Below are positions 992-60,030 of a stretch of DNA of 64,000 bases, piece by piece. The notes below the pieces were generated by a model. It made no database searches, was not told the origin of the DNA, and saw only the letters and a list, made by a program, of their open reading frames with translations. The position numbers were made by a program, and so were the translations under genes. The DNA is from Candidatus Doudnabacteria bacterium (lineage in GTDB: Bacteria > Patescibacteriota > Doudnabacteria > UBA920 > O2-02-FULL-48-8), in assembly GCA_037200925.1 (NCBI GenBank), contig JBBCGO010000001.1, positions 9,552 through 73,551 of the forward strand. Reading direction: 5' to 3'. The stretch's first letter is position 1. Each line of letters opens with the position of its first letter.

Positions 992-992
992 T

Positions 993-1286: not shown

Positions 1287-2025
1287 GCAGATCATATGGG
1301 TTATCATAATTGCTTTTTTTGTCGGCGCATTGGGCAGCATTGCGATCGGCCGGTTCGCGATCCCGTATCTGGCGACATTCAACGGCATGTCTTTTTTGAA
1401 CAAATTGTCCTCGAATTCCCAGCTTGTGATCAACCGGACGCAGGAGATCCAGCTCAATGAAGGGGCGAATCTTGTTGATCTGATCAAGCAGGCCGGGAAT
1501 ATCACTGTTTCAATTTATGACCAAAGTGATAATTTTTTGGGCAACGGAGTGATCGCAACTTCGGACGGAGTGATCTTTACCAGCGATTCAATCCTGCTGG
1601 GCCAGACCAAAGTCAAAGTTGTGACCAATGACGGCAAGAACTTTGACGGACTGGCGCGGGCCAAAGACCCGAAAAGCACGCTGGTCATCCTGACTATTAC
1701 GGCAAACGATCTGCCCGTGGTCCAGCTCGATGATGCGGCGAATATGGAAGCAGGGCAGAGGGTGATCTATGTCGGGAGATCAAACGCGCCTTTTCAGCAC
1801 CTGGCGGTTACGGGTTTTGTGACTCAGAAAATGTCCAATCTTGTTGATAAAGCCGAGCAAGTATCGACTGATGTAACGGTAAAACCGGATCTATACGGCG
1901 GACCGATCATCAATCTTTCCGGGCACGCGATCGGCATCACTTTGGGTGCCGGCGATAATATCATTTCAGAAAATCTGCGGACCGATCTCGGCGAGTATCT
2001 GGCAACAGGAAAATTAACCCCCTAA
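1276..2025 (+). CDS. HtrA/trypsin-like fold protein, probably a catalytically inactive pseudo-protease, membrane anchored
   Basis: N-terminal TM helix. The body aligns to the HtrA protease domain (..DGVIFTSDSIL.., ..LYGGPIINLSGHAIGIT..), but His, Asp and Ser of the triad all appear substituted (GNSGGP becomes DLYGGP). The ATG at 1276 overlaps the ogt stop. Confidence 0.55.
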   Translation: MMRKQIIWVIIIAFFVGALGSIAIGRFAIPYLATFNGMSFLNKLSSNSQLVINRTQEIQLNEGANLVDLIKQAGNITVSIYDQSDNFLGNGVIATSDGVIFTSDSILLGQTKVKVVTNDGKNFDGLARAKDPKSTLVILTITANDLPVVQLDDAANMEAGQRVIYVGRSNAPFQHLAVTGFVTQKMSNLVDKAEQVSTDVTVKPDLYGGPIINLSGHAIGITLGAGDNIISENLRTDLGEYLATGKLTP

Positions 2026-2027
2026 AT

Positions 2028-2435
2028 ATGGAAGATTGTATTTTCTGCAAAATAATCAATCGGCAAATCCCTTCCGATATTATTTATGAGGATGACCAGA
2101 CTTTGGCCATCTTGGATATCAGGCCTGTGAGCCGCGGCCATGCGTTGGTTATGCCGAAGAAACATACAGAGGATCTGTTGTCCGCTACAGGTGAAGATCT
2201 GGTCAATACGATCAAGGTCACTCAAAAAATAACCCGGGCTGTTAAAGATGCTACCGGAGCGATAGGCATGAATGTTTCTACAAACAATGGCGCTGCGGCA
2301 GGCCAGGTGATTTTTCATCTGCATTTTCATATTATTCCGAGATTTGGAAATGACAATTTAAGCCCTTGGCCGCACCAAGAAACCGAACCGAAAACGCGCG
2401 CGGAGCTGGCCGAGAAAATAAAGAAGTTATTATGA
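2028..2435 (+). CDS. HIT-family (Hint-like) nucleotide hydrolase
   Basis: Histidine triad motif HLHFHIIPR and an N-terminal CIFCKII motif. Confidence 0.85.
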   Translation: MEDCIFCKIINRQIPSDIIYEDDQTLAILDIRPVSRGHALVMPKKHTEDLLSATGEDLVNTIKVTQKITRAVKDATGAIGMNVSTNNGAAAGQVIFHLHFHIIPRFGNDNLSPWPHQETEPKTRAELAEKIKKLL

Positions 2436-3403
2436 AATATTTAGTCACAGGCGGGGCGGGATTCATCGGCTCTAACTTTATTCATTATTTGTTTGCCAAA
2501 TACCCTGATTGTGAAGTAGTGAACGTGGATAAATTGACCTATGCGGGGAATTTGGAAAACGTTAAAGAATTTGAAAACGATCCTCGCTATAAATTCGTAA
2601 AAGGCGATATTGGCGATCTTGAACTGATGAAGCAAACAATGCAGGGAGTTGACATTGTGGTCAATTTTGCGGCGGAATCACACAATGACAGGGCAATTTT
2701 GGATCCCGGAATATTTGTGAGTACCAATGTCTTGGGGACGCAAGTTCTTTTAGAAGCAGCTAAACAAGCGAATGTTCCGAGATTCCACCATATCTCAACA
2801 TGCGAAGTGTTTGGCGATATGGAGTTGGAAGAAAAAAGAGCATTTAAGGAAACCGATCCGTTCCTTCCCAAAACTCCTTATAATGCTTCGAAAGCCGGAG
2901 CAAACCATGTTGTGATGGCTTATTTTCATACTTTTAAAACTCCTGTGACCATCAGTCATTGTTCAAATAATTACGGCCCCTACCAGTTTCCTGAAAAGTT
3001 AATTCCTCTTTTTACAACCAATGCGTTGCAGGGAAAAAAACTGCCGTTGTTTAAAAGCAGCCAAAACAAAAGAGAGTGGCTCCACGTGGAAGATCATTGC
3101 AGGGCCATAGATCTGATATTGCAAAAGGGCAAACTCGGCCAGGCTTACAATATCGGCAGCGGGGTTGAAAAATCGGTGGAAGAAATAGCCGATTCGATCT
3201 TGCAGATTCTCGGAAAGGACAAAAGCCTGAAAACTTATGTTCCTGACCGCCTCCAGCACGATCTTCGTTATTTGCTTGACTGCTCCAAAATCAAGAACGA
3301 ACTGGGCTGGGAACCTGTCATAAATTTTGAAGAAGGCGTACAAGCAACAGTCGATTGGTATAAGCAAAACCCGGATTGGTGGCAGAAATTACTGGACAAA
3401 TAA
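2432..3403 (+). CDS. rfbB: dTDP-glucose 4,6-dehydratase
   Basis: N-terminal MKYLVTGGAGFIGSNF Rossmann motif and the YxxxK SDR region (YNASKAG). It overlaps the HIT stop by ATGA. Confidence 0.9.
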   Translation: MKYLVTGGAGFIGSNFIHYLFAKYPDCEVVNVDKLTYAGNLENVKEFENDPRYKFVKGDIGDLELMKQTMQGVDIVVNFAAESHNDRAILDPGIFVSTNVLGTQVLLEAAKQANVPRFHHISTCEVFGDMELEEKRAFKETDPFLPKTPYNASKAGANHVVMAYFHTFKTPVTISHCSNNYGPYQFPEKLIPLFTTNALQGKKLPLFKSSQNKREWLHVEDHCRAIDLILQKGKLGQAYNIGSGVEKSVEEIADSILQILGKDKSLKTYVPDRLQHDLRYLLDCSKIKNELGWEPVINFEEGVQATVDWYKQNPDWWQKLLDK

Positions 3404-3405
3404 TT

Positions 3406-3963
3406 ATGGCAACGACTGAATTCAAAATTTCTCAAACTGCGATCCCGGGCCTTTTCGAAATAGACATAACTTTGCTGGAAGATGAGCGGGGATATTTTCA
3501 GGAAAAATTCCAGAAAGAAAAACTGGTGGCTTTGGGATTTCCAAAAGATTTTATGCCGGTGCAGCAGAATATATCGTACAACCGGCAAGTTGGCGTAACC
3601 AGAGGATTCCACGCAGAGCCGTGGGAAAAATATTTAGAAGTCATCTCCGGAAGCGTATATGCTGTATTTTTGGATTTGCGCGAAGGGGATAATTTCGGCA
3701 AAAAACAGGCAATCGTGATAGATCAAAACAAGGCTGTTTTTGTGCCTTTAGGAGTTGCCAATTCCTTCCAGACCCTGGAAGCCGATACTTACTATTCTTA
3801 TCTGGTCAATGCGCATTGGTCATCGCAAAAAACCTCGGAATATAAATTTGTGAATTTAGGCGACCCGGACCTGGCGGTTGAGTGGCCGATCAGTCTTGCC
3901 AAGGCGATCATTTCCGACAAAGACCGCAATCATCCGATGTTGAAGGATATTAAGCCTTTTTAA
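3406..3963 (+). CDS. rfbC: dTDP-4-dehydrorhamnose 3,5-epimerase
   Basis: RmlC-like cupin sequence (TAIPGLFEIDITLLEDERGYFQE..). It lies immediately downstream of rfbB. Confidence 0.85.
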   Translation: MATTEFKISQTAIPGLFEIDITLLEDERGYFQEKFQKEKLVALGFPKDFMPVQQNISYNRQVGVTRGFHAEPWEKYLEVISGSVYAVFLDLREGDNFGKKQAIVIDQNKAVFVPLGVANSFQTLEADTYYSYLVNAHWSSQKTSEYKFVNLGDPDLAVEWPISLAKAIISDKDRNHPMLKDIKPF

Positions 3964-3966
3964 TTT

Positions 3967-4806
3967 ATGAAAGTATTGATCCTCGGAGCCAAAGGGAGTT
4001 TGGGGCAGACTTTTGCCGATGTTTATAAAGATCAGGAAGTGATCGCTTGGGATAAGAATGAACTTGATATCACCGACGAAGATGCAGTCGCTGAAAAAAT
4101 AACCGGACTAATGCCGGATATCGTCATTAATTGCGCGGCGTACAATTCGGTCGATAAAGCGGAAGACGAAAGAGAAACGGCTGATCTGATCAACGGGTAT
4201 GCAGTTGGATTTATTGCCAAAGCCTGTGATTCCGCCGGCGCAACTCTTGTTCATTATTCCACCGGACAAATATTCGACGGCAGCAAATCAGAGGGCTATA
4301 ATGAAGATGATCAGCCCGGTCCCGTTAATTTCTACGGCAAGTCTAAACTTTTGGGAGAGATGCAGCTGCAGGAGTACGCGGAAAATTTTTATCTGATACG
4401 GACCTGTTGGCTATATGGCCGGCCGGCCGAAGGAAAAAAAAGTTTTACCGATATAATGCTGGAATTGGCAACCGGGAACACCGTCATCAATGCGACCAAA
4501 GACGAATTCGGCAAACCGACTTATGTCAAAGACCTGGCCGAAGCTACCCGAGCGCTGGTTGATGAGAAAAAGCCTTTTGGAATTTATCATCTGACAAATT
4601 CTGGGATAGCCAGCAGGTTTGATTGGGCAAATGAGATTTTTACCATCAGAAAAAATAAAGCATTGCTTGAGGCGGTTAATGCCGGTTTTTTCCCAAGAAA
4701 AGCCAAGCGGCCCAAATATGAAGTTTTGAACAATACAAAATTCATCCAGCTGAGGCCTTGGACGGAGGCTTTGAAAGAATATTTAAGTTCTACCAATGAG
4801 AATTAA
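3967..4806 (+). CDS. rfbD: dTDP-4-dehydrorhamnose reductase
   Basis: MKVLILGAKGSLGQ Rossmann N-terminus with an RmlD-like body. It follows rfbC in the rml operon. Confidence 0.8.
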   Translation: MKVLILGAKGSLGQTFADVYKDQEVIAWDKNELDITDEDAVAEKITGLMPDIVINCAAYNSVDKAEDERETADLINGYAVGFIAKACDSAGATLVHYSTGQIFDGSKSEGYNEDDQPGPVNFYGKSKLLGEMQLQEYAENFYLIRTCWLYGRPAEGKKSFTDIMLELATGNTVINATKDEFGKPTYVKDLAEATRALVDEKKPFGIYHLTNSGIASRFDWANEIFTIRKNKALLEAVNAGFFPRKAKRPKYEVLNNTKFIQLRPWTEALKEYLSSTNEN

Positions 4807-5065
4807 ACCTTATTTAATACCACTAAGTTTGGGCATTGTACTTCTAACGTTTCTTTCTCCATTTTTTATACATTTACCTTTTGGAATTATTGAAGGGTTA
4901 GTAGTGTTAGGCATTATTTTATATCTCGCGGGTTTGGTTACCGAATTCGATCCAGATCCAACTATAAGCAAAAAATATAAAATATTCAGAATAATTCTGA
5001 TTATCTTTGGTCCAATTGCATTGATAATATTATTGTTATTTTTAATAAATGTAGGTGGTTTATGA
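4796..5065 (+). CDS. small hydrophobic membrane protein
   Basis: 89-aa ORF with two predicted TM helices, translationally coupled to neighbours on both sides. Confidence 0.35.
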   Translation: MRIKPYLIPLSLGIVLLTFLSPFFIHLPFGIIEGLVVLGIILYLAGLVTEFDPDPTISKKYKIFRIILIIFGPIALIILLLFLINVGGL

Positions 5066-5826
5066 AGGGAATTATTTTGGCAGGCGGCTTGGGGACGAGA
5101 TTATATCCGTTGACCCATGCTACTAATAAGCATTTGCTGCCGGTGTTCAACCAGCCCATGATCTATTATCCTATTCAGACGCTTTTGAAAGCGGGGATCA
5201 CGGATATCATGGTCGTGGTCGGCGGGCCGCATGCAGGCGATTTTATCAGGGTTCTGAAAAACGGCAAGGATTTCGGGATCAAACATCTGGAATTCGCTTA
5301 TCAGGATTCCGGAGACGCAGGCATTGCCGATGCTTTGAAGCTGGCGGAAAGTTTTGCGGACAACAATCCGGTAACGGTCATTCTTGGAGATAACTGCACT
5401 GATTTTAAGATCCGCGAACAGGTCAAACAATTTAAGGACGGAGCGCTGGTGTTTTTGAAAGAAGTGGAAGACCCGCACCGTTTCGGCATCGCCCAGCTGG
5501 ACAAGAAAGATCCCTCAAAAATTATCGGAATCGTGGAAAAGCCGAAAAAACCTAAAAGCAACCTGGCCGTAACCGGACTTTATATCTTTGACAGGAATGT
5601 CTTTAAGATGATTAAAAAGGTCAAACCTTCAGCACGCGGACAACTGGAAATTACGGACGTGAATAATCTTTATATCCAGGCCGGCAAAATGCAGTGGGCC
5701 AAACTGGACGGGTTCTGGTCTGATGCCGGCACGTTTGAAAGCTTGTACCGCACAAGCGTGTATTGGGCGCGCAAGGCTTTGGGAAAACGAAACGAGAAAA
5801 GTCTGATAAAATTTGACCGAATTTAA
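5062..5826 (+). CDS. rfbA: glucose-1-phosphate thymidylyltransferase-like sugar nucleotidyltransferase (short form)
   Basis: MKGIILAGGLGTRLYPLT..KHLLPV..MIYYP signature of RmlA-type nucleotidyltransferases. It sits in the rml cluster. Confidence 0.75.
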   Translation: MKGIILAGGLGTRLYPLTHATNKHLLPVFNQPMIYYPIQTLLKAGITDIMVVVGGPHAGDFIRVLKNGKDFGIKHLEFAYQDSGDAGIADALKLAESFADNNPVTVILGDNCTDFKIREQVKQFKDGALVFLKEVEDPHRFGIAQLDKKDPSKIIGIVEKPKKPKSNLAVTGLYIFDRNVFKMIKKVKPSARGQLEITDVNNLYIQAGKMQWAKLDGFWSDAGTFESLYRTSVYWARKALGKRNEKSLIKFDRI

Positions 5827-6762: not shown

Positions 6763-8010
6763 TCAAAACCAATTGGCAAATAAAGTTACCACCGCGATCA
6801 GAAATAAGATCAAAATATGCGGGTTGGGATGGATCCCGGCCCGCTTTACTTTTGCGCGGCGAATAATAACAGCGTCTACGATCAGAAATCCCATATAAAT
6901 TAGCGCAAAGATCCCGAATACGATCCGTAAAATATTAATGATGCCTGCTTCGTTGGAAATCGGGATTGCAATTGCGGTAGTTGCCGCGCTTGCCGCTTGC
7001 GAGGACTGGATGTCAACCGGAAAATCCTGAGTGATCTTGGTTCCGGCGTTGTTGCGCGCTTCCACAGATATCGTTTGGTGAGATAGATCTTCAGTCGGAT
7101 CAAAAGTGAATGAGCCGATGAATTCTCCCTGCGATCTTCCGGCGATGAGCGTGATCGATTGGGTCTTCAGCCTGGCTGTGACCAGAGTCGGCGAACCCGC
7201 AATAACCACATCAATATTCACAAGCGTATGTCCTGAGAGGGAAGTGGAATTAATTTTTATATCTTTGGAAATTGCCAGGCTGGCAATCGGGGCAGGTGCC
7301 GGAGCCGGAACGGGTGTTGTCACCGGAGTGGTATAAGGCGTAGCGTACGGCGGCCGAGCTTTTGTCACCGGAGTGGTATAAGGTGAAGCATAGGCCGGCG
7401 GAGCAGGCGGGGCCGGTGTTTTATACAGCGCACCAAAAAGGCTGACGGCAATGATCGTATCATGATCCGGTTCAAAAGTGCCTGCGATAGTCGCCAGACC
7501 CTGGTCTTCAAATTTGGGATTAACGATATTTTCCCGATGGGTCGGACTGTTCATCCAGGCACTGACCATGTCAGACGCGGAAGTGAAATCCATTGCCAGA
7601 TTTTCGCCCAACGTCAGATAAGGAGTATAGCCTGCCGCCTCGATCCTCGGCCAAACGTAATTGCCGTCCGGATCGACGTGGGCAAAATAACTTCGGGTCA
7701 TCATATCCTGGGCTTTGCCGATCGCAGCGTTGATCAGTTTGCCGTTGGTAATTAAAGCCGGAATAAATCTTTGGGTCCGTTCGGCATTGATCCTGCTCAT
7801 CAGGTCGCTCGCATCAATGCTGGATGCTGCCAGCGAGAGGCTAGGCATTAAGAAACGCAGACCCCAAATGACCAGACAAAAAACCGCCAAGGCCGGGGTA
7901 GTTATGATCCAAGGCTTATAATCGTTATATTTGGAGGCAAGCAGATAATGTTTGAGTTTCATCGGTAAGGCGTATGATTTAAGTTTAAACCAGTAGTCCC
8001 TTCTTGGCAA
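6763..8010 (-). CDS. CAP/SCP (YkwD-like) domain protein with PYTTPVT Pro/Thr repeats and a C-terminal TM anchor
   Basis: CAP-domain motifs (..MNSPTHRENI.., ..FAHVDPDGN..), an N-terminal signal anchor, a Pro/Thr-rich linker and C-terminal hydrophobic helices. Confidence 0.65.
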   Translation of the reverse strand: MPRRDYWFKLKSYALPMKLKHYLLASKYNDYKPWIITTPALAVFCLVIWGLRFLMPSLSLAASSIDASDLMSRINAERTQRFIPALITNGKLINAAIGKAQDMMTRSYFAHVDPDGNYVWPRIEAAGYTPYLTLGENLAMDFTSASDMVSAWMNSPTHRENIVNPKFEDQGLATIAGTFEPDHDTIIAVSLFGALYKTPAPPAPPAYASPYTTPVTKARPPYATPYTTPVTTPVPAPAPAPIASLAISKDIKINSTSLSGHTLVNIDVVIAGSPTLVTARLKTQSITLIAGRSQGEFIGSFTFDPTEDLSHQTISVEARNNAGTKITQDFPVDIQSSQAASAATTAIAIPISNEAGIINILRIVFGIFALIYMGFLIVDAVIIRRAKVKRAGIHPNPHILILFLIAVVTLFANWF

Positions 8011-8055: not shown

Positions 8056-8084
8056 TTGACAATTTATCTGAATTATGCTAAACT
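8056..8084 (+). promoter_or_regulatory. sigma70-like promoter (TTGACA, 17 nt, TAAACT). The ATG at 8093 lies 8 nt after the -10 box, so the transcript is predicted leaderless
   Basis: Hexamers and spacing read directly from the sequence. There is no SD sequence. Confidence 0.5.
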
Positions 8085-8092
8085 AATACGTT

Positions 8093-9256
8093 ATGACAAA
8101 TCAATATATATCCGAAATCCATAGCTTGCTGAAGCTGGGTGACCCCAACGTCTCCCCGGCTATTAATGGCGCCCCGGAAGGTTTGCCCATTGCAGGCGAA
8201 AATAAAGCCGATTCTCATACCCCTGCCGTCAATGTGCGCGAACATGAGCAGATCTTGCACTCTAACGCAGATACGGCAAAGTTAAACAATAACTTCGTCA
8301 TAAAGATGAACAAAAGCAACCCGACGGTTGCCCATGTAAAAAGCTTCCTGATCTATCCTATGATCTTTATAATCGCATTTGGTTTCTTTTACATTGTGCT
8401 GAACTTTGCATCAGTCAGCGCACAGGTCCAGGGTATGTTCGCAAAACCGCAAGCCCAGCAGATCCTCGGCGATCAGCTGCCGGCTTACGACTCATGGATC
8501 AACGGATACTTTTACTCAGTGTCCGATGCAACCCTCTTAGATCCGAATTCTGATATCGACAAGGACGGACTGTCCAACATGGATGAATTTATCATGCGCA
8601 CCAACCCGACGGTCGCTGATTCTGACGGCGACGGATATCCTGATGGAATGGAAGTTATCAATTATAAAAATCCGTGGGGAACCGGCAATATGACTGTTTC
8701 GCAGAAACAGCTGGCTGACACATTGGATATGAACCTGATCAATAACCGTATCAGCTATAACGCGGCGCCGATCAATCCGGGCCTGGTTGCAGCTGCCAGT
8801 ACAACCGACTATGACTTAAGCAAACCCGGCACTCTGTCTATCCCGAGACTGAACCTGACCGTGCCTTTGATCTGGTCCAAGGACCCGTCTGAATTTGAAA
8901 CAGATTTGACTAAAGGCGTTATCCACTATCCCGGCACAGCGTTTCCCGGCCAGCAAGGCACTATCTATGTCTCAGGGCATTCTTCAGACTATATATGGAA
9001 GCATGATGCGATGCAAAGCATCTTTGCCAAGATCAATTTCCTAAAGCCCGGCGATGACATTTTTATCGACGTTTACGGAGTTGACGGCAAAGTCCACAAT
9101 TTCCGCTATCAGGTTACCGGCAATCATGTTTATAAACCGGATGACCAGACCCAGTTCATCGACAACTCCAGCAACAAGCTGAATCTTTCAACTTGCTGGC
9201 CGATCGGCACATCCACTAACCGCATCGTAGTTTCCGCAGTTCAGGTTGGACTTTAA
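8093..9256 (+). CDS. sortase-family transpeptidase, membrane anchored
   Basis: An N-terminal region and a TM helix precede the sortase fold. The fold carries catalytic His (IYVSGHSS), Cys (LNLSTCWP, TLxTC-type) and Arg (TNRIVVSA). Confidence 0.75.
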   Translation: MTNQYISEIHSLLKLGDPNVSPAINGAPEGLPIAGENKADSHTPAVNVREHEQILHSNADTAKLNNNFVIKMNKSNPTVAHVKSFLIYPMIFIIAFGFFYIVLNFASVSAQVQGMFAKPQAQQILGDQLPAYDSWINGYFYSVSDATLLDPNSDIDKDGLSNMDEFIMRTNPTVADSDGDGYPDGMEVINYKNPWGTGNMTVSQKQLADTLDMNLINNRISYNAAPINPGLVAAASTTDYDLSKPGTLSIPRLNLTVPLIWSKDPSEFETDLTKGVIHYPGTAFPGQQGTIYVSGHSSDYIWKHDAMQSIFAKINFLKPGDDIFIDVYGVDGKVHNFRYQVTGNHVYKPDDQTQFIDNSSNKLNLSTCWPIGTSTNRIVVSAVQVGL

Positions 9257-9388
9257 TAATTTGGCCGGGCGGAAGACTTTAGTTTTTCAAATTGGAAGAT
9301 TAGAGCTTTCCGCTCGGTTACGACAAACAAAAAGGCCAGGCTCCCCAGTAAGGAGACCTGTCCAACGATCTTTCAGGAGGAATGAGAA

Positions 9389-9970
9389 ATGCAGAAGTGG
9401 ACGATAGTACTCAGTTTGGCTTGCTTTGTTTCCGCCGGGTGCCACAAAGGCAATCCGATGGAACCAACGCCGACTACGACAACGCCCAATGGCGCGATCC
9501 CGGTCGCTCAGGCGGCGAAGGTCCAGATTCAGCTGAACCAAGCTGTGGACCGGACCGTCAACGCCATCTCGATGACGCTCAAGGGCGTTTCCGGCTCGGA
9601 CGAACTCATCAACGGCTTGCCGTTGAGCGAGCCGCTCACGGCGACCGACCGCTGGTCAGGCGCCCTGATCCACGTGCTGTCCTACAACGCCGTGGTCAAC
9701 GGCAAAGTCGGCTGGTCGGGAAATACGAACATTCCGTTCACGCCGCCGAGCCATGATCACTTCCAGTTCGACAGCATTCCGACCAACGGAACGCTAGATA
9801 TCGCGATCGAGATGATCCCGGGCAACCAGCCTGTGGGTGGGCCGTTCCACCTCATCAAAGTTGACCCTTCTGCTTCGAATGTGGAGATCACGTCCCCTCT
9901 GGGCGCAAGATACACGTTCGAGAAGGACTCTTCGGGATTGGTCCATATCAAAGGGCCGCGTCCCTACTAG
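9389..9970 (+). CDS. lipoprotein of unknown function (in GC-rich island)
   Basis: Signal peptide with lipobox (LSLACFVSAGC), an AGGAGG RBS 6 nt upstream, and about 60% GC against about 45% in flanking genes. Confidence 0.55.
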   Translation: MQKWTIVLSLACFVSAGCHKGNPMEPTPTTTTPNGAIPVAQAAKVQIQLNQAVDRTVNAISMTLKGVSGSDELINGLPLSEPLTATDRWSGALIHVLSYNAVVNGKVGWSGNTNIPFTPPSHDHFQFDSIPTNGTLDIAIEMIPGNQPVGGPFHLIKVDPSASNVEITSPLGARYTFEKDSSGLVHIKGPRPY

Positions 9971-9977
9971 TTTCTAA

Positions 9978-10008
9978 CTTGGGCTTGCTCTTCTCGAGCA
10001 AGCCCAAG
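9978..10008 (+). terminator. perfect 13-bp stem-loop (CTTGGGCTTGCTC/GAGCAAGCCCAAG) with no U-tract, after the island lipoprotein gene
   Basis: Inverted repeat read directly. It is followed by CCCCCTTTCCCC rather than a T-run. Confidence 0.45.
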
Positions 10009-10038
10009 CCCCCTTTCCCCAATTCTGCAAGGTAGCTC

Positions 10039-10067
10039 TTGACAGAATCGTCATATTCATGTATACT
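10039..10067 (+). promoter_or_regulatory. consensus sigma70 promoter (TTGACA, 17 nt, TATACT) driving the island secreted-protein gene through a 130-nt leader
   Basis: Hexamers and spacing read directly. An AGGAGGGG RBS lies before the ATG at 10197. Confidence 0.55.
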
Positions 10068-10196
10068 ATTTTGTTAACAATTTAAAGCCGATATTTCAGT
10101 ATAAAAAGTGAGGCTCAAGGTTTGGAGGGCTCCAAGCTTTAAGCGTCGCTTCTTGTATTCCACAAGTAAGCACATAACAACCCTCAGGAGGGGCTT

Positions 10197-11474
10197 ATGA
10201 AAATCGTTATGGCAGTAATGGCTGCTCTCTTCTTGGGGGGCGTGACCAAAGCCGAAGCTCAAGTTCGTGCACCGACGCCGGGACTCATTGCGTGTGATCC
10301 CAGCACCATCCCCGCGATGAATAAAGGATACCCAGTCTGGGGCCCTGCCGGAGCGGGTGTGTCGCCAGTCATGCCGGAAGTTCTGGATGAAGTTCGCAAA
10401 GGGCGAAATCCGCTGCAAGTCGTGGCGGAGGCGATCAAGCGCGACAGAAATCGCGACCGGATCAGTATGTTTAACCGCATCCAGGCATTCACGCCGCCGG
10501 ACACGCTCATGGGGGAAATCCCCGAACTGCCGCGAGAGTTTCAGGAAGCATTCGAAAAAGCTGTTCGGGTTGAAAATCTCGAAGAGTCTACAATCGAGTG
10601 CGGCGACCTGATTCACTACGTGACGTCTGCAGCTCCTGATCGGACTGAAGGAAACAAGGCAATCGCCCAGATCCATATCCTGCCGGCACATGTGCTGGGC
10701 TGGTGTGAACAGGGAGTTGTCGGTCCGAACGGCAAATGTGCCGTCCGCGTTGTGCAGACCAAAACGCTGATCAGCCTGACCAGCGGGGTCAACAATGGGA
10801 GCGCGTATCGCTTCCAGATGATCCTGAACTGCGGGAACCCCAACGCGAAGTTGGAAGTTCCCAATGTCGTAACCGAAGTTCCCGCTCTAATGCCGCCTCC
10901 GGACGCACCTGCTGCACCGCCAAAGGAATCGACGGCACAGGAACAACCGAAACCCGAACCAATCTATTACGAGGTTTGGGGCCGGAAGGTTTTCGAAAGA
11001 TCAGATCACAAACGCCTCGGAATAAGGGACGTTTCGGACCTGGTCTGGTCGATTCACCTGTCGGCATACGACCGCAACGGTCTGCGCTACGACGCCTATC
11101 CCCAATACTACGACGACCGGGGATTCGTATTCAGCTACTGGGTGTTGCGAGATGCCCTGCCGCTGACAGTCTCTGAAGATCCTGCGACCGAGCTTGCAGG
11201 ATTCAGTGATAAAACCGAGAAACTGAAGATTAATTTAAGGGAAGAATCCTACAAGTTGATCCAAGTTCCTGCCGAGCCTGAGTACATTAACCGGGCCAAG
11301 GACATCCACACGCTGTGGATTCCCTGCATCACAGGCAAGCACAACAAGTGGGCCTGCGCAGCCATACTTGGCGTCGGTGCCGCCTTCATACCAAGAGGGC
11401 ACGGTCAAGCGGCAACGGCGACTTCGTCACCCGAGCAGCCTGTGAAAACAGGAAGCCCGGGCCCGCGGCCGTAA
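10197..11474 (+). CDS. secreted hypothetical protein (in GC-rich island)
   Basis: 425-aa ORF with a signal peptide (MKIVMAVMAALFLGGVTKAEA), a Pro-rich linker, and no recognisable domain. High GC produces many spurious overlapping ORFs on both strands. Confidence 0.55.
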   Translation: MKIVMAVMAALFLGGVTKAEAQVRAPTPGLIACDPSTIPAMNKGYPVWGPAGAGVSPVMPEVLDEVRKGRNPLQVVAEAIKRDRNRDRISMFNRIQAFTPPDTLMGEIPELPREFQEAFEKAVRVENLEESTIECGDLIHYVTSAAPDRTEGNKAIAQIHILPAHVLGWCEQGVVGPNGKCAVRVVQTKTLISLTSGVNNGSAYRFQMILNCGNPNAKLEVPNVVTEVPALMPPPDAPAAPPKESTAQEQPKPEPIYYEVWGRKVFERSDHKRLGIRDVSDLVWSIHLSAYDRNGLRYDAYPQYYDDRGFVFSYWVLRDALPLTVSEDPATELAGFSDKTEKLKINLREESYKLIQVPAEPEYINRAKDIHTLWIPCITGKHNKWACAAILGVGAAFIPRGHGQAATATSSPEQPVKTGSPGPRP

Positions 11475-11488
11475 CGATACATTTTTTT

Positions 11489-11524
11489 GGGGCAGACGAT
11501 CTATCGATCGCCTGCCCACCTTTT
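11489..11524 (+). terminator. stem-loop terminator at the right edge of the GC-rich island
   Basis: GGGGCAGACGATC..GATCGCCTGCCC hairpin followed by ACCTTTTCTC. Confidence 0.45.
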
Positions 11525-11583
11525 CTCAAGTGATTAGTAAGCAAACTCTTTGTTTACTGATTATTTTATAAACAGGAGATCAT

Positions 11584-14500
11584 ATGAATTTAATCAAACA
11601 TCTTTCGCAATCAAAGGTCCTTCGTGTCATAGGGCTGGCTTTGATATTGGTTTCGGTTTTTTCTCTTCAAGTTTTGGTTAAAGCCGATACCGGTTCAGGG
11701 GACCATGATTTCCTGGTCAGAGTTTTTGATGGCGATCCGGTAAATGATAACAAGGTCCCGGGCGCCACAGTTCAACTGATCGGCGGAGTTAATGACGGGT
11801 TGTCAGGCGTTACTGACGGCGCCGGAAATATCCTTTTTCACGTGACCGAAGGCCAGTTTACCACAAGAATTTCCCATCCGAATTATAACACTCAGGATTT
11901 TTCGATCATTATTGATATGCCGAGCGGACAGCTGGATGCTTCTTTGACTGCTAATACTCCACCTACACCTCCGACTCCTCCTACACCGCCAACGCCTCCT
12001 ACACCTCCGACTCCTCCTACACCGCCAACCCCTCCCACTCCACCCACACCTCCGACTCCTCCTACACCGCCAACCCCTCCTACACCTGGAGCAGACAGGG
12101 ATTTCCTGGTCAGGGTTTTTAACGGCGATCCGATCAATGATAACAAGATCCCGGGCGCCACTATTTTGTTGATCGGCGGAGCTGATAATGGTCTGTCAGG
12201 AGTGACCGACGGCGCTGGAAATTTTCTTTTCCATGTCCACGCCGGCCAGTTTACGGCAAGAATTTCCCATCCGGATTTTAACACCCAGGATTTCTCGATC
12301 ATTATAGACATGCCGAGCGGCCAGCTGGATGCTTCTATGATTTCTAAAACCACCGCTCCGCCTTCAGGACCTCCTTCAGGCGGCGTCTGTACTCCGACAC
12401 CTCCGGATGGCCGTCCATTGCTGAACGTCTGGCCTATTTCCACGTCAGGAACTGATTGTACCGACTATCCTTTGCTTTCCGTAAAAAACGTTACGCGAGG
12501 CGGCGGATATGTCTCAGGCGGCAATGTAACTGCATCCAATGGGGATACGCTTCGTGTTGAACTGTATGTTCATAACGGCGTTATCGATCTTCCAGAAAAC
12601 ATCGCACGTAATGTAATGGTTAGCGCGAATGTTCCGGGTTCAGTCGGCTCTGCCACTATTACTGCCCAAGCATGGGCCGACAATGCCGACTTGGTAAACA
12701 GCGGACAAAAAGGCGGAAATGTTACCGTCAATATGGCGGGCAACGAGTCATTGTCATATATTTCCGGTTCAACTACGCTTTATGATCGTGGTCCATCCAA
12801 TGCCCGCGGCGTCAGTGATGGAATTGTTGGCAGCGGGATTAATATTGACCCAGCGATGCACGGCTGTTTTCCATTTTTACACTTTGTTACATTTGACCTG
12901 CGGGTAAACGCTTCATCTACACCCACTCCTACACCAACTCCAACCCCCACACCGACTCCTACTCCAACCCCGACGCCTACACCTACGCCAACACCGACCC
13001 CGACTCCTGGCCAGGGAACTATTAGTTTTACAAAGCTGGTACGGAACGTAACGCAAGGACAAACTGTTTTTGCTAACTCTACTTCTGCTAATCCGAATGA
13101 TCAGGTGGAGTTTCAAATGAAAGTTACGGATTCAGCTGCAGGCCCGGTTAATAATGTTGTCTTCACGGATACTCTGCCTAGCCGTCTTAATCTGGTCAGC
13201 GGTTCGTTTACGATCGATGGAGTACCCAGCGGCAGTAATTTGAACGCGATCGGTTTGGGCTCTCTGAGCGCCAGCCAGACCAGAACCATGGTCATCCGCG
13301 CCACTGTTTCCGACAGTTCGCAATTCAGTACAGGCGGTACGGTTTTGACGAACTCAGCTCAAGTGACATCTTCCAGCAATTCAGCAAACGCCTCAGCTTC
13401 AGTTACCGTAAATATCGGCCAAAATAATAATACGAACCTGGCCATTGTTAAAACTGTCCGCAACACAAGCCAGGGCCAGTTCTCATTCGTCAAATCCGTC
13501 TCTGCCAATCAGGGAGATAACGTCCAGTTCCAAATCCAGGTAACCGCCAGCGGAAACATCGCGGCACAAAACGTCACAGTCACAGACAGTTTGCCTAGCG
13601 GATTTAATTTGACCTCTGGAACAACGACTTTCAACCTTGGAACTATGAATCCGGGTTCAACACAGACTGTAACCTTAACCGGCACGGTCAATCTCAACAA
13701 TATCTGCGGAACGACTATTTTGACCAACACCGCACAAGTAACGTCTTCTAATGCCGGTTCTGCAACGGATTTCGCCACAGTGTCTGTGGTCGGAAATAAT
13801 TGCGGCGGGCCTTCGTCCCCAAGCTTGAGCTTGATCAAACTGGTAAGAAACCTGTCTACTAATACGGGCTTTTCTAATACCGCAAGCGCCTCAACCGGGA
13901 ACCAGGTCCAATTCCAACTGGTCATGTCGAATAATAATTCCTCAAGCGTCGCCTCGAATGTCCGGGTCACTGACAGCCTGCCGTTTGGATTATCTTATGT
14001 CCCGGGAAGCTTTCAGATCGACAACGGAGTATCGTTCGGAAATCTGTTCGGCGGCAGCCAGTTTGTGGGAAACCTCTCGTTCGGTCAATCGCGTACGATA
14101 TTGTTCACTGCGATTGTCACTAATTCAGGAAATCAAACCTTGGTCAACCAGGCTACTGCTTCGGCGGACAACACAAATTCGGTCAATGCACAGGCAACCG
14201 TGTTCGTCTCATCTGTTCTGGGCAGCAACGTCAACCTCATCCTTTCCAAACAGGCGTTTAACCAGACGAGAAACGCGGATGCAACGACAATCGCTGCAAA
14301 TTCCGGTGATATCATTGTCTACACTTTGTCAGCTCAAAACACGGGCAACAGTGCGGCTACAAATTACACCTTCCAGGATGATCTGTCAGATGTGCTGCAA
14401 TTATCCCAGATCCAGTCTTTGGGTGACGCTTCTCTCAACGGTACCAATATGACCTGGCAGCCTGTAACAATTCCTGCCGGAAGCATCGTGACAAAGACTT

Positions 14501-14751
14501 TCAGCGTGAGGGTCAATTCCACCTTTGCTGCGGGAACTGACAATGTCATGACCAACGTATTCGGAAACACTATCAACGTACCGGTAAACAAGCCGACAGT
14601 TTTGGGAGTATTCACTTCACCAAAAACCGGCGCCACCAGCACCTTGGTCTACATCTTATCCTTTATGACAGTTCTGGGTTTTGTCGGATACAAAAAGAAA
14701 GACCAAATTTTGCCCGTTTTTAACTCTCTAATCCCACGCAATAATGTCTAA
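11584..14751 (+). CDS. large cell-wall-anchored surface protein: duplicated N-terminal module, (PPT)n and (TP)n linkers, multiple DUF11 repeat domains, C-terminal SPKTG sorting signal
   Basis: Signal peptide. A 115-aa module is repeated twice and separated by a PTPPTPP tract. DUF11-type repeats (LVRNV..GQ..F...A.PND.V.FQ..VT....LP..L....GS..IDG) follow. The C-terminus (TSPKTGATSTLVYILSFMTVLGFVGYKKKDQ) is a sortase-type signal. AGGAG RBS. Confidence 0.8.
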   Translation: MNLIKHLSQSKVLRVIGLALILVSVFSLQVLVKADTGSGDHDFLVRVFDGDPVNDNKVPGATVQLIGGVNDGLSGVTDGAGNILFHVTEGQFTTRISHPNYNTQDFSIIIDMPSGQLDASLTANTPPTPPTPPTPPTPPTPPTPPTPPTPPTPPTPPTPPTPPTPPTPGADRDFLVRVFNGDPINDNKIPGATILLIGGADNGLSGVTDGAGNFLFHVHAGQFTARISHPDFNTQDFSIIIDMPSGQLDASMISKTTAPPSGPPSGGVCTPTPPDGRPLLNVWPISTSGTDCTDYPLLSVKNVTRGGGYVSGGNVTASNGDTLRVELYVHNGVIDLPENIARNVMVSANVPGSVGSATITAQAWADNADLVNSGQKGGNVTVNMAGNESLSYISGSTTLYDRGPSNARGVSDGIVGSGINIDPAMHGCFPFLHFVTFDLRVNASSTPTPTPTPTPTPTPTPTPTPTPTPTPTPTPGQGTISFTKLVRNVTQGQTVFANSTSANPNDQVEFQMKVTDSAAGPVNNVVFTDTLPSRLNLVSGSFTIDGVPSGSNLNAIGLGSLSASQTRTMVIRATVSDSSQFSTGGTVLTNSAQVTSSSNSANASASVTVNIGQNNNTNLAIVKTVRNTSQGQFSFVKSVSANQGDNVQFQIQVTASGNIAAQNVTVTDSLPSGFNLTSGTTTFNLGTMNPGSTQTVTLTGTVNLNNICGTTILTNTAQVTSSNAGSATDFATVSVVGNNCGGPSSPSLSLIKLVRNLSTNTGFSNTASASTGNQVQFQLVMSNNNSSSVASNVRVTDSLPFGLSYVPGSFQIDNGVSFGNLFGGSQFVGNLSFGQSRTILFTAIVTNSGNQTLVNQATASADNTNSVNAQATVFVSSVLGSNVNLILSKQAFNQTRNADATTIAANSGDIIVYTLSAQNTGNSAATNYTFQDDLSDVLQLSQIQSLGDASLNGTNMTWQPVTIPAGSIVTKTFSVRVNSTFAAGTDNVMTNVFGNTINVPVNKPTVLGVFTSPKTGATSTLVYILSFMTVLGFVGYKKKDQILPVFNSLIPRNNV

Positions 14752-15370
14752 ACGCCCGTTCATCGCCCTGATCGCTTTGCTGGTGATCTTAGGTCTTGTG
14801 ATCTGGGCCGCTAACCGCAAGAGTAAAAATCCCGCGCAGGAAGCCGCAACGCCTCTGCTTTCGGTTTATGCGTACAATCAAACCAAAAGCCTTCCGGCCA
14901 ACCGGACCGCTGCCTCGCCGAATGATGTCATAGTTTATACCCTGAGCGCTGAAAACCAGACCGATCAGGTTGTTTCCGGATACATCATAGAAGCGAACGT
15001 TGCTCAAGTCACTGATAAATCCACTTTAATTGATGCGACAGGCGCTGGCTATAATTCGGCCACCAATTCACTGGTCTGGACGCCGCTGGATATTCCGGCA
15101 AACGGAGTGATCCAAAAACAATTCAGCGTGCGCGTCAATTCCATACCCTCGGGAGGCTCGGATACCGTGATGCGGATAAAATTCAATAATGAAATGGTTG
15201 TTTCGATCCAATCAGTATCCACGGGCCAGCGCGTTGCCGGTGCCAATACCAGCAACAGCCCGTATAAAGCTCCGGTTACTGGTCCTGCTGAGGATCTGGG
15301 CTTGTGGCTGGCCGGTATTGCAACAGTTTCATTTTTTGGAATCAAAAAATATCGAACAAATAAAGTCTAG
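14744..15370 (+). CDS. DUF11-domain cell-wall-anchored protein (APVTG sorting signal)
   Basis: N-terminal signal anchor. Its domain is paralogous to the C-terminal domain of the preceding protein (DVIVYTLSAENQT.. versus DIIVYTLSAQNTG..). The C-terminus is APVTGPAEDLGLWLAGIATVSFFGIKKYRTNKV. Confidence 0.65.
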   Translation: MSKRPFIALIALLVILGLVIWAANRKSKNPAQEAATPLLSVYAYNQTKSLPANRTAASPNDVIVYTLSAENQTDQVVSGYIIEANVAQVTDKSTLIDATGAGYNSATNSLVWTPLDIPANGVIQKQFSVRVNSIPSGGSDTVMRIKFNNEMVVSIQSVSTGQRVAGANTSNSPYKAPVTGPAEDLGLWLAGIATVSFFGIKKYRTNKV

Positions 15371-15414: not shown

Positions 15415-15542
15415 AAAATGCTCGGAACAAACCGCAGACTTGCCCATGTTTTTTTTGTTATCTATGATTAAGAAAAGCGGAAAACAAACATGCAAACAAA
15501 AAACCGCAAAACTTTGCCGGTTTTTTGTTTAACCCTCAATTC

Positions 15543-16562
15543 ATGGATAATAAGAAGCAGATCTTAGTGACCGGCGGTGCCGGATATATCGGTTCCCATA
15601 CAGTGAAGCTTTTACAGGAGCGGGGATTTGATGTTTTGATACTGGACAATCTTTCGACCGGCCATGCGTCAAGCGTCTCATGCCCTCTGATCGTAGGCGA
15701 TCTTAATGACAAGGATCTGCTGAAAAAGATATTTTCGGAATTTGAGATTGAAGCGGTAATGCATTTTGCCGCGTCGCTGATCGTTGAAGAATCCGTGCTG
15801 TTCCCGGGAAAGTATTTTGAGAACAATGTGGTCAACGGATTGAATCTGCTTGACGCCATGATTGCCGCGAAGGTCGAAAAGATAATTTTTTCTTCGACCG
15901 CTGCTGTTTATGGTGAACCTCATTATGAGCGCATTGACGAGGACCATCCCAGACTGCCTCTGAATCCTTACGGTGAAAGCAAATTAATTTTTGAAAAGAT
16001 CCTTAAGTGGTTTTCCCAGGCGTACGGGCTATCTTCGGTTTCGCTGCGCTACTTCAATGCCGGCGGAGCATCAACTGATGCGTCCTTGGGCGAGGACAAG
16101 GCCGTGGTCACGCATCTGATCCCGCAGGTTTTACGCGTGGCGGCAAGACAGCAGGAAACGCTTAAGATCAACGGCAATGATTACGCAACTCCTGACGGCA
16201 CCTGCATCCGTGATTATATCCATGTGCTTGACCTGGCAAATGCCCATCTGCTGGCTCTGGATAAATTAAATGACGATGCGGGCGTATTCGCCTACAATGT
16301 CGGGACAGGCATGGGGCACTCGGTCAACGAGGTAGTCACCGCGGCCATGGAAATTACCGGCAAGATGATCCCGATCGAATACGGACCCAGACGCGCGGGG
16401 GATCCGGCAGCTCTTGTTGCGGATGTGGAGAAAATTAAGCGGGAACTCGGATTCAATCCGGAACATTCCGATCTGAATACTATCATAAGAACAGCCTGGG
16501 CCTGGCACCAAAAATTGCTCGAGAGGCAGAGAAACAAAATTTTAGAGGAAATGCAAAATTGA
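15543..16562 (+). CDS. galE: UDP-glucose 4-epimerase
   Basis: ILVTGGAGYIGSH Rossmann motif and a GalE-like SDR body including a YGESK catalytic region. Start chosen at the ATG after the upstream hairpin. Confidence 0.85.
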   Translation: MDNKKQILVTGGAGYIGSHTVKLLQERGFDVLILDNLSTGHASSVSCPLIVGDLNDKDLLKKIFSEFEIEAVMHFAASLIVEESVLFPGKYFENNVVNGLNLLDAMIAAKVEKIIFSSTAAVYGEPHYERIDEDHPRLPLNPYGESKLIFEKILKWFSQAYGLSSVSLRYFNAGGASTDASLGEDKAVVTHLIPQVLRVAARQQETLKINGNDYATPDGTCIRDYIHVLDLANAHLLALDKLNDDAGVFAYNVGTGMGHSVNEVVTAAMEITGKMIPIEYGPRRAGDPAALVADVEKIKRELGFNPEHSDLNTIIRTAWAWHQKLLERQRNKILEEMQN

Positions 16563-16612
16563 AACTTCCAAAAATCGCCAATGGGGCGGTTTTTTGGTAT
16601 GCTTAGTTTAAG

Positions 16613-17593
16613 ATGAAAGAAATATTTCCTTATAAAAAATCAATTGACTCGAAAGTAGTAAAAGCTGCGTCTGAAATTCTCGGCGTTCCTGTTATTTCTT
16701 CAAGCAGATTGAAAGGGGGCGTGGTTAATTATGTCTATAAATTAAAAACAGCTGAACGTACAGTTGTGGTCAAGGTTTTTCGGAATCGTTTTTGGCCCGA
16801 AGACGGCAAATTGCAATGGATAGAAAAGCAGTTCGCCAAGCATAAGGTCCCGCATGCAAAGATGATCTATTACAGCAGAAATAATAAATATTTTCTGTTC
16901 GGGTTGATGATATCAGAATATGTAGCCGGACTGAATGCAATGGAAGCGGTTAAAAAAGGCGTCCATACAATGGCTGATTCTTATAAAGCCACGGGCAATC
17001 TTTTGAAAAGGGTTCATAAGATAAAGTTAAAAAAATTCGGGCAGATAAATTACGGGAAAGGCACAGACAGTAATTTTATAAATCGTGAGCTAAAAAAAGC
17101 GACAGGACTGATCGAAAAGCTGATACATCATAAGAATCTTAAACACGAAATTCTTAATAAATTTATTTCAGCCGTGAGAAATGGACTCGAACCGTTCAAA
17201 AAGAGATTTAAACCGGTGCTGATCCATGGCGATGCAACCCGTGATAATTCTATTTTGGCTAATAACGGTGAATTTATTCTTATAGACTGGGATAATGCCA
17301 AGTCAAATATCGCGCTGTGGGATTATTTTGTTTTGACGTCGTGGTGGCCGATCGGACCAGAGTTTAAAAATCCCGCAAAAAAGAAAGAGTTAAAGCAGGC
17401 ATTTTTTGACGGTTACGGGAGATCTGGGTTTACGAATGATGAAATTGAACATATTGAGCCAGCAATCCATCTCCTGATATATGCAGCAGTTATGGACTTT
17501 TTTTTATTTAACAAAAAAGATTATAAAAGTTTCGGCCAAACCCGCAAGCAGTTTGAGCATATTATTAGGAAAATTAAAATCAAAAATTTGTAA
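16613..17593 (+). CDS. aminoglycoside/choline-kinase-like phosphotransferase (APH family)
   Basis: Motifs LIHGDATRDNSIL and ILIDWDNA (Brenner and DxD motifs of APH/ChoK kinases). Confidence 0.65.
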   Translation: MKEIFPYKKSIDSKVVKAASEILGVPVISSSRLKGGVVNYVYKLKTAERTVVVKVFRNRFWPEDGKLQWIEKQFAKHKVPHAKMIYYSRNNKYFLFGLMISEYVAGLNAMEAVKKGVHTMADSYKATGNLLKRVHKIKLKKFGQINYGKGTDSNFINRELKKATGLIEKLIHHKNLKHEILNKFISAVRNGLEPFKKRFKPVLIHGDATRDNSILANNGEFILIDWDNAKSNIALWDYFVLTSWWPIGPEFKNPAKKKELKQAFFDGYGRSGFTNDEIEHIEPAIHLLIYAAVMDFFLFNKKDYKSFGQTRKQFEHIIRKIKIKNL

Positions 17594-17644
17594 AATCAAG
17601 GCAAATTTGGTATAATTTGTTTGAAATATTCTCATTAAAACACA

Positions 17645-18370
17645 ATGATAAAACTTTCAGTCGTGATTCCGGCCTACAATGAGGAACACCGCATTGCGCG
17701 AACATTGCTCGATGTTGACGGCTATCTGGAAAAACAAAACTATGAGTACGAAATCATCGTCGTAGACAACAATAGTAACGATAAGACATCCGAAATCGTT
17801 AAAAATCTGGAGAGCACATCCGTTCAGAATGCCCGCGTGATCACGGAAACCATAAAAGGCAAGGGTGCTGCTGTGCGGCGCGGTATCTTTGACTCAAAAG
17901 GCGAGTTCACCGTATTCATGGATGCGGATAACGCGACCCCGATCCGAGAGATCGAAAAATTCTGGCCCTATCTTGAGTCGGGGATAGAAGTTGTGATCGG
18001 TTCGCGCTACCAGGACCCGTCAAGCGTCAAGATCAAGCAGCCTTTCTATAAAGTTCTTTTGTCGCGCGCAAGCAACATTTTGATCCAGATCGTGCTCATA
18101 CCCCACATCAAAGACACGCAGTGCGGCTTCAAGGCTTTCAAGACCTCGGCGGCAAAAGAGATCTTCAAAAATTTGACCATCTTCGGCTGGGCATTCGACA
18201 TGGAATTGCTTGCCATAGCTCTAAGATTGAGTTATAGAATAAAGGAAGTGCCGGTTTCGTGGGAAGAACACGGCGGCAGCCACGTTCCCCTTAAAGCCTA
18301 TCTGCAATCTTTGGTTGATCTGTTCAGAATAAAATGGAAAGCCTTAACCGGAAAATATTCGGGTAAATGA
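17645..18370 (+). CDS. family 2 glycosyltransferase (dolichol-phosphate mannosyltransferase-like)
   Basis: LSVVIPAYNEE.., VVDNNSNDKT and DAD motifs of GT2. An extended -10 (TGGTATAAT) lies upstream. Confidence 0.8.
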   Translation: MIKLSVVIPAYNEEHRIARTLLDVDGYLEKQNYEYEIIVVDNNSNDKTSEIVKNLESTSVQNARVITETIKGKGAAVRRGIFDSKGEFTVFMDADNATPIREIEKFWPYLESGIEVVIGSRYQDPSSVKIKQPFYKVLLSRASNILIQIVLIPHIKDTQCGFKAFKTSAAKEIFKNLTIFGWAFDMELLAIALRLSYRIKEVPVSWEEHGGSHVPLKAYLQSLVDLFRIKWKALTGKYSGK

Positions 18371-49344: not shown

Positions 49345-49497
49345 TAGGTTTCTTCAAGAATTTGTGACTATTATCAGAACGGTTGCTCCTTTGGTTTTTT
49401 CATTTCTCACTTGACAAAATAATAATTTCCGTTATAAAATACCTTACGTTTGCATAGAAACAGAGCAACAAAAATTAACATTAACAGCGAAAAAAAA

Positions 49498-60011: not shown

Positions 60012-60030
60012 TTTTTTAGCGGATTTCTAA

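Follow-up and report, generated by a model that had tools for sequence, protein, structure and literature searches.

Members of the Candidate Phyla Radiation (CPR), or Patescibacteria, are thought to live attached to other cells, and what is known of their surface structures comes almost entirely from gene lists. A sortase family, fam000526, was found in more than half of CPR genomes and read as evidence of a Gram-positive-like wall (Meheust et al., 2019; PMC6744442), and further genome papers refer to sortase A or to 'sortase motifs' in CPR (PMC4736985, PMC5220378). Here we describe a locus from Candidatus Doudnabacteria (CPR/Patescibacteria; contig JBBCGO010000001.1), at approximately positions 8056–15370 of a window of 64,000 nt (the whole stretch of DNA analysed), which encodes a sortase and two surface proteins with candidate sorting signals. 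We suggest that it is probably a lineage-specific Doudnabacteria sortase cassette, in which ordinary sortase chemistry would be combined with a lineage-specific signal. An earlier sequence-only reading of this DNA had placed cell-wall anchoring machinery in a CPR-like genome; the source of the DNA bears this out, and the occurrence of such machinery in CPR is not new in itself, given what PMC6744442 reports. Widespread sortases in CPR are common ground between fam000526 and our locus, but the passages of that paper available to us describe no substrates, no sorting motif and no Doudnabacteria-specific architecture. The mechanism is not new; what the locus adds is an enzyme that falls outside the defined sortase classes and has an architecture and a motif of its own, together with its identified cargo.

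With regard to the signal, a described system close to this one is SrtB of Clostridioides difficile with its (S/P)PxTG substrates (PMC4155245, PMC5569036, PMC4371152). In both systems the first motif position holds a small residue or Pro instead of Leu, a single sortase serves a few adhesin-like substrates, and the signal is tripartite; SPKTG and PPKTG, which we find in the Doudnabacteria loci, are identical to experimentally validated C. difficile SrtB signals (PMC4155245, PMC5569036). The Ala-first APxTG consensus of the present family, in contrast, is not among the C. difficile motifs given in the papers found. Moreover, the C. difficile enzyme belongs to class B whereas the window enzyme matches no class B model, and organism, N-terminal architecture and substrates all differ. 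Engineered variants of Staphylococcus aureus SrtA that accept APxTG (PMC9126251, PMC8248031) demonstrate that the active site of a sortase can be adapted to Ala at position 1, but these are laboratory-evolved class A enzymes, whereas the window enzyme is natural and of an unrelated lineage. Looking in the literature for natural sorting signals of the form APKTG, APVTG or APxTG, we found only papers on engineered sortases and unrelated peptides; within the library searched, a natural Ala-first signal is thus not described, and no paper was found that brings together sortase, Patescibacteria and sorting signal. The recently described CPR Pam pilus, which relies on donor-strand exchange, is unrelated to the Doudnabacteria cassette.

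The sortase gene (8093–9256, +) encodes 387 residues, of which residues 248–384 match the Pfam family Sortase, PF04203 (E = 6.7e-19; 68.3 bits against a cut-off of 26.6), and the protein has a 100% identical entry at NCBI from a Candidatus Doudnabacteria metagenome-assembled genome (MAG). From N- to C-terminus it comprises a cytoplasmic N-terminus, a transmembrane (TM) anchor, a conserved helical juxtamembrane region, two TSP3-like repeats, a disordered linker and the catalytic domain (residues 244–387). The single hydrophobic segment (residues 85–103, part of a helix at residues 77–103 in the AF2 model) agrees with the membrane anchoring claimed in the sequence-only reading, and the topology predicted from it places the catalytic domain outside the cell. 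The His (GHSS), Cys (LSTCWP) and Arg named there as catalytic were placed by pairwise and profile alignments to solved sortases: His296 in SGHSSDY (codon 8978–8980, +) aligns with the His of solved class C sortases, Cys368 in LSTCWP (codon 9194–9196, +) with the TLxTC of solved sortases, and Arg377 in NRIVV (codon 9221–9223, +) with their conserved Arg, and none of the three varies among the 53 full-length homologues that were aligned. In agreement, the AF2 model (predicted local distance difference test, pLDDT, 77.9; catalytic core mostly >85) superposes on solved sortases at 2.8–3.4 Å over ~145 residues. At least 120 full-length homologues with 47–73% identity are among the matches listed, most of the named ones being from Doudnabacteria.

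The N-terminal half sets the family apart. The motif SEIHSLLKLG at residues 7–16 (8111–8140) is conserved in the family form SEIHxLLKLG, with Glu8, Ile9 and Leu13 invariant, and two Asp-rich TSP3-like repeats at residues 154–187 (TSP3_bac, 9e-05; the stretch 8546–8662 covers residues 152–190) keep the patterns DxDxDGLxNxxE and DSDxDGxxDGxE throughout the sortase family. To our knowledge, neither this motif nor TSP3-like repeats have been described for sortase classes A–F. Judging from their Asp-rich patterns, the repeats may form a calcium-binding stalk, in which case sortase function could depend on calcium.

Classification with sortase-subfamily hidden Markov models, which the sequence-only reading had proposed as a check, succeeded at the generic level only: TIGR01076 is passed (41.1 against a cut-off of 39.35), but no class model reaches its cut-off. 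The NCBIfam scores, each followed by the cut-off, are 64.4/140 for SrtD, 59.6/165 for class D, 45.8/160 for class C, 35.6/160 for class E, 21.8/158 for class GN and 21.3/166 for class F, and neither class A nor class B models of NCBIfam give a match. The names that NCBI attaches to the homologues conflict ('class E', 'class D', 'sortase'). The closest solved relatives, by profile search against the PDB (E ~1e-8) and by fold (Foldseek), are weakly those of pilus-type class C, with class D, class E and Bacillus anthracis SrtA closely behind. The enzyme was accordingly assigned to no class, all class models being far below cut-off and the class C ranking weak. With the class C and D sortases of Firmicutes and Actinobacteria (PDB 8t28, 2xwg, 4g1j, 2ln7, 4d70) the window enzyme shares the His-Cys-Arg triad, a TLxTC-like STCWP and the beta-barrel core, but it is only ~23–25% identical to them and has the unique N-terminal half made up of SEIHxLLKLG, a helical region and the two TSP3-like repeats. 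Further, unlike them it has no class C lid motif DP[FWY] anywhere in the protein (the segment before beta1 is disordered in the AF2 model) and no C-terminal TM helix, the chain ending 10 residues after Arg377.

The sortase and its putative substrates are strictly linked. We compared the window with six related loci from a species-level genome collection and four from public assemblies (L001–L009 plus a JGI locus, that of P0075, which was covered by gene calls without DNA). The ten related loci follow one gene order: dTDP-rhamnose genes, a DUF5656 membrane protein, a CAP-domain protein on the opposite strand, the sortase, one or more GC-rich unknown genes, a large CLIPPER (DUF11) protein, a small protein, a GalE-type epimerase, a GT2 glycosyltransferase and a subtilase. 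Both substrate genes adjoin the sortase in all nine related loci that reach far enough (9/9), L001 stopping before the substrates. This order is kept in diverged genomes, the sortases of nine further syntenic loci being 49–62% identical to that of the window.

Both substrates carry a tripartite C-terminal signal. In the large protein (signal 14617–14748, +), the pentapeptide SPKTG (14617–14631; residues 1012–1016) is followed by a hydrophobic helix, ATSTLVYILSFMTVLGFVGY (a 20-residue hydrophobic stretch), and then by KKK and a 16-residue tail; in the small protein (signal 15269–15367, +), APVTG (15269–15283; residues 176–180) is followed by a hydrophobic helix, PAEDLGLWLAGIATVSFFGI, and then by KKYRTNKV. 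The pentapeptide opens a sorting signal of 33–44 residues in both substrates, so that the two motifs, the hydrophobic segment and the basic tail of the sequence-only reading stand, whereas its statement that the proteins end in the pentapeptide does not. The large tail scores 15.4 with the LPXTG_anchor model TIGR01167, just under the cut-off of 15.9. We also searched all six frames of the 64-kb stretch with a loose filter, xPx[TSA][GANSD] followed by a hydrophobic stretch and a basic residue. Of the eleven matches, only the large and the small substrate show a genuine tripartite signal; the remaining nine comprise a short spurious frame, frames antisense to real genes and matches in the interior of ordinary proteins. 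No alternative substrate was thus found in the 64-kb window.

The motif is conserved in orthologues of both proteins. The pairs of large- and small-protein motifs are SPKTG and APVTG in the window, APKTG and APITG in L002, APPTG and APKTG in L003, APKTG and APTTG in L004, APKTG and APKTG in both L005 and L006, APPTG and APTTG in L007, PPKTG and APTSG in L008, and APPTG and APETG in L009; a 64%-identical fragment of the large protein (P0196) also has SPKTG. Among 53 homologues of the small protein, Pro177 is present in 53/53, Gly180 in at least 51 and Ala176 in at least 48; position 4 is Thr in ~40 and Ser in ~13, with two apparent Ala exceptions (APTAG in P0158 and P0159), and position 3 varies freely (V, K, T and others), the linker around the motif being likewise unconserved. 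Considering the loci and the 53 homologues together, we derive a family signal (A/S/P)-P-x-(T/S)-G, in which position 1 is Ala, Ser or Pro and not the canonical Leu; the family consensus is APxTG, of which the SPKTG of the window is a minority variant. A homologous C-terminal domain from another lineage (P0199) is followed by a classical LPNTG, so that the motif goes with the lineage and its sortase and not with the cargo domain; P0196 and P0199 come from a search with the C-terminal 356 residues of the large protein, which gave only five matches, to be taken as examples and not as statistics. The sequence-only reading had suggested a dedicated sortase–substrate pair with a non-LPxTG signal, and had named beforehand a lost catalytic Cys or an unconserved C-terminal motif as findings that would speak against it; in our alignments the Cys is retained, the motif is conserved and the genes are adjacent in nine related loci, all of which favours its suggestion.

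The large substrate (11584–14751, +; 1,055 residues) is the DUF11-repeat protein that had been recognized from the sequence, and it matches Pfam DUF11/CLIPPER PF01345 over four stretches (E = 1.2e-35, 122.7 bits), TIGR01451 (120.8 bits) and the isopeptide domain TIGR04226 (63.9 bits). A cleavable-looking signal peptide (..LVKA|D) leads into two duplicated beta-sandwich modules around a (PTPP)n linker, a middle domain and a (TP)n linker, and these are followed by three CLIPPER (DUF11) stalk repeats, a fourth, CLIPPER-like C-terminal domain and the sorting signal. The two N-terminal modules stem from a tandem duplication inside the gene (279-nt units at 11707–11985 and 12100–12378, 80% identical), and this internal duplication is recent; the (PTPP)n linker between them is 9-nt periodic (region 11938–12096), and the second linker, (TP)n, lies at 12916–13005. 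All four repeats have a Lys in the first strand, an Asp in xTDxLP and an Asn in xTNxAQV, positions that correspond to the Lys–Asn isopeptide and catalytic Asp described for CLIPPER domains (bioRxiv 10.1101/2025.04.25.650565). With the CLIPPER fibrillar adhesins of that work (PDB 9ifr) the protein shares tandem stalk repeats with the isopeptide-triad positions and an overall layout of signal peptide, head, stalk and sorting domain; unlike in those adhesins, the sorting signal is of the APxTG type and the small companion protein is without the Lys and Asn positions. On this comparison the large substrate fits a fibrillar-adhesin stalk, in which the isopeptide positions are candidates only. Orthologues of the large protein occur in L002–L009. 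In L008 a third substrate, a CLIPPER protein of 617 residues (11146–12999 of that locus), directly follows the sortase and ends in APPTG, a helix and RRK, which indicates that the number of cargo proteins varies between lineages.

The small substrate (14744–15370, +; 208 residues) is a one-domain paralogue whose first 8 nt are also the last 8 nt of the large gene; such an overlap is found in most related loci as well, the two genes elsewhere (L007 and the JGI locus) being ~30 nt apart. It is identical to an NCBI 'hypothetical protein' of the same Candidatus Doudnabacteria organism and consists of an N-terminal TM helix, one beta-sandwich domain (residues 38–155), a linker of ~20 residues and the sorting signal. 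The sequence-only reading was correct about the protein and its APVTG, but the DUF11 identity that it assigned fails in direct searches, with no Pfam match at E ≤ 0.01 and a TIGR01451 score of 14.7 against a cut-off of 24, and the orthologues have only weak or faint CLIPPER matches. At ~28–33% identity (tblastn), the protein is a paralogue of the C-terminal domain and signal of the large one, and its AF2 model (pLDDT 89.1) is an Ig-like sandwich between N- and C-terminal helices. A fold search of this model against the PDB gave only generic Ig-like, CBM2, AgI/II adhesin, CLIPPER and pilin domains, with a single match at E ≤ 1e-3; CLIPPER 9ifr is among the matches, with a TM-score of 0.62 on the target, and none of them points to a function. 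The small substrate, which is without the isopeptide Lys and Asn positions, is a degenerate CLIPPER-like paralogue. No small-x-small signal-peptidase site was found across the small-substrate family in the N-terminal hydrophobic segment (14744–14830, residues 1–29), in contrast to the ..VKA|D of the large substrate, and the small protein may for this reason stay in the membrane, anchored at both ends.

In the mechanism that we propose, a type II membrane-anchored cysteine transpeptidase would recognize the motif (A/S/P)-P-x-(T/S)-G in the two surface proteins encoded beside it, each of which would be retained in the membrane by its C-terminal helix and basic tail. The sortase would then cut after the Thr or Ser, form a thioacyl intermediate on Cys368 and pass the substrate to the amine of a cell-wall precursor, so that both proteins would be covalently displayed. 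The large substrate would act as a fibrillar adhesin, with N-terminal beta-sandwich heads, Pro/Thr linkers and an isopeptide-type CLIPPER stalk, and the small one would present a single stalk-type domain.

A different product can be envisaged, namely a pilus-like two-component assembly in which a class C-like sortase links the two substrates through the Thr of the large one and a Lys of the small one, the small protein being the basal subunit, anchored in the wall or, via its uncleaved N-terminal helix, in the membrane. Considering that the nearest solved relatives by profile and fold are pilus-specific class C sortases, that the large and small genes overlap or lie ~30 nt apart, that Lys125 of the small protein is nearly invariant and that the fimbrial isopeptide domain TIGR04226 matches the large protein, such an assembly deserves attention. 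We nevertheless find it unlikely: the class C likeness is weak (E ~1e-8) with classes D and E close behind, the enzyme has neither the DP[FWY] lid nor the C-terminal TM helix, no [YFW]PK pilin motif occurs in either substrate, and the same type of motif on both substrates suggests the same fate for both. Moreover, conservation of Lys125 is not confined to the small protein but extends to the paralogous domain of the large one and to relatives in other lineages, and the residue, being common to paralogues that are not pilins, is probably structural. It is highly improbable, in our view, that the C-terminal segments are plain uncleaved membrane anchors and that the adjacent sortase acts on proteins encoded elsewhere, since a conserved Pro and Gly within the otherwise variable linker of 53 homologues would be hard to explain as a spacer, the substrate genes are strictly linked to the sortase throughout the loci examined and no alternative substrate is found in the window; for plain anchors speak the missing canonical Leu, the failure of TIGR01167 to recognize the small tail and the scope of the motif scan, which was the 64-kb window only.

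The nature of the acceptor leads to a further alternative, that the substrates are linked not to peptidoglycan but to another acceptor of an unusual CPR envelope, such as a wall glycopolymer containing rhamnose, a component of an S-layer or a lipid. All characterized sortases known to us use a peptide amine (lipid II cross-bridge, diaminopimelate or pilin Lys), and glycan genes beside surface-protein genes are common without a mechanistic link. We therefore regard an acceptor of this kind as very unlikely, even though the locus lies amid predicted dTDP-rhamnose, GalE, GT2, ABC-2 exporter and flippase genes and the structure of the CPR envelope has been called unclear (PMC5220378). Returning to the lineage-specific cassette that we favour, certain points weigh against it in their turn. 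No class-specific model is reached by the sortase, so that its specificity cannot be transferred from a characterized enzyme, and TIGR01167 gives no match with the small tail. In addition, further sortases or substrates may be encoded elsewhere in the ~1-Mb genome, and the acceptor and a peptidoglycan-bearing Doudnabacteria envelope are presumed from a view of 64 kb.

Between the sortase and the substrates lie genes that the sequence-only reading passed over, at 9389–9970 and 10197–11474, although they form a conserved part of the locus that it covered. The GC-rich segment to which they belong (9257–11583) occurs at the same position in every related locus (L002–L009), with an open reading frame (ORF) of ~308–453 residues; its GC content is 0.50–0.60, against 0.43–0.48 for each whole locus, and the GC content at third codon positions (GC3) of its genes is 0.56–0.76, against 0.37–0.57 in neighbouring genes, so that amino-acid composition alone does not explain the GC richness. 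The first gene (9389–9970, +; GC3 0.76) encodes a lipoprotein-like protein of 193 residues with a lipobox-like N-terminus, LSLACFVSAGC; a lipoprotein-like ORF is found in some of the loci, and in L008 a homologue at the same position has a matching C-terminus (..VHIKGP). The second (10197–11474, +) encodes a secreted protein of 425 residues, p425, with a signal peptide, a Cys-containing N-domain, a Pro-rich linker, WxPC..W(A)C, a TM-like stretch and a Pro-rich tail ending in SPGPRP.

The proteins at the p425 position are fast-evolving and barely alignable between loci, but in most loci the same architecture recurs: a signal peptide, a Cys N-domain (DCP..IP, FTPxGT, PCG, CGNP) and a Pro-rich linker, and in the C-terminal half C..W.C directly before the TM-like stretch and a Pro-rich tail ending in SPG(T/P)R. 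In L002 the ORF at this position is on the opposite strand, has a different end and is not assignable to the p425 family. Exhaustive searching with HMMER turned up only 19 relatives of p425 among 1.84 billion representative proteins, and neither p425 nor the 193-residue ORF (nor the tails) matched Pfam or NCBIfam up to E = 10. An Rfam scan detected no structured RNA in the GC-rich stretch, and a repeat search gave no sign of a diversity-generating template, finding only the PT-linker repeats, the internal duplication of the large gene and one weak inverted repeat. One may speculate that the cassette goes beyond simple display, the small protein, with its uncleaved N-terminal TM helix and sortase-linked C-terminus, serving as a covalent membrane-to-wall tether or as the basal socket of a two-protein fibril, and the p425 family as the host-recognition partner of an episymbiont surface organelle; we hold this to be improbable.

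Divergently from the sortase, and beside it in L001–L009 (47–60% identity), runs the gene for a CAP/SCP-domain membrane protein of 415 residues (6763–8010, −; Pfam CAP, 8.8e-13), with TM segments at residues 40–58, 360–378 and 397–415; this conserved neighbour carries no sorting signal. A sigma-70-like promoter match precedes the sortase start (8056–8084, +; TTGACA, 17-nt spacer, TAAACT with TG extension; 10/12, a consensus match only), and a promoter-like site lies ahead of the p425 gene (10039–10067). The cassette is surrounded by a cell-envelope cluster (284–5826 and 15525–26245). Upstream are an HtrA-like protease, an HIT protein and a predicted four-gene dTDP-rhamnose operon, named from the N-termini of the window ORFs and the Pfam labels of syntenic genes in the related loci; downstream are a GalE-like epimerase, a kinase-like ORF, a GT2 gene, a subtilase S8 and two ABC-2 exporter pairs, and a polysaccharide flippase is also part of the cluster.

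Elsewhere in the window, a secreted protein of 1,716 residues (49450–54600), rich in Thr, Ala, Gly and Val and with an N-terminal signal-like helix, has neither a Pfam match nor a sortase signal and may be an S-layer or other surface protein. Three consecutive ORFs of 377–424 residues (58737–62363), each with a TM-like segment at the N-terminus and with C-termini that contain Cys and resemble one another in style, are without Pfam matches and may form an array of paralogous membrane proteins. A bacterial class A RNase P RNA at 57677–58046 barely passes (101.5 bits against a gathering score of 100), and no tRNA gene was found across the whole 64 kb. As regards the related loci, several with the full Doudnabacteria-type synteny have been deposited as Verrucomicrobiia, Saccharibacteria, Acidobacteriaceae or Binatia (L004, i.e. 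DASPKQ010000130.1, L001 and L006, and the proteins P0078, P0101 and P0107), and these are probably mis-binned or mislabelled MAG contigs.

Finally, the understanding of how sortases work is unchanged by this locus, but a natural Ala-first sortase could be of interest for sortase-mediated ligation, given that APxTG specificity has so far come from directed evolution. Since the LPXTG models miss proteins of this kind, the locus would also help to annotate surface proteins of Doudnabacteria that are now hypothetical. In addition, it supports a peptidoglycan-anchored, Gram-positive-like surface, and it offers, for one class of CPR, a concrete and testable module in which a sortase outside classes A–F is paired with a defined natural signal of the APxTG type and with two identified cargo proteins, of which one resembles an adhesin.

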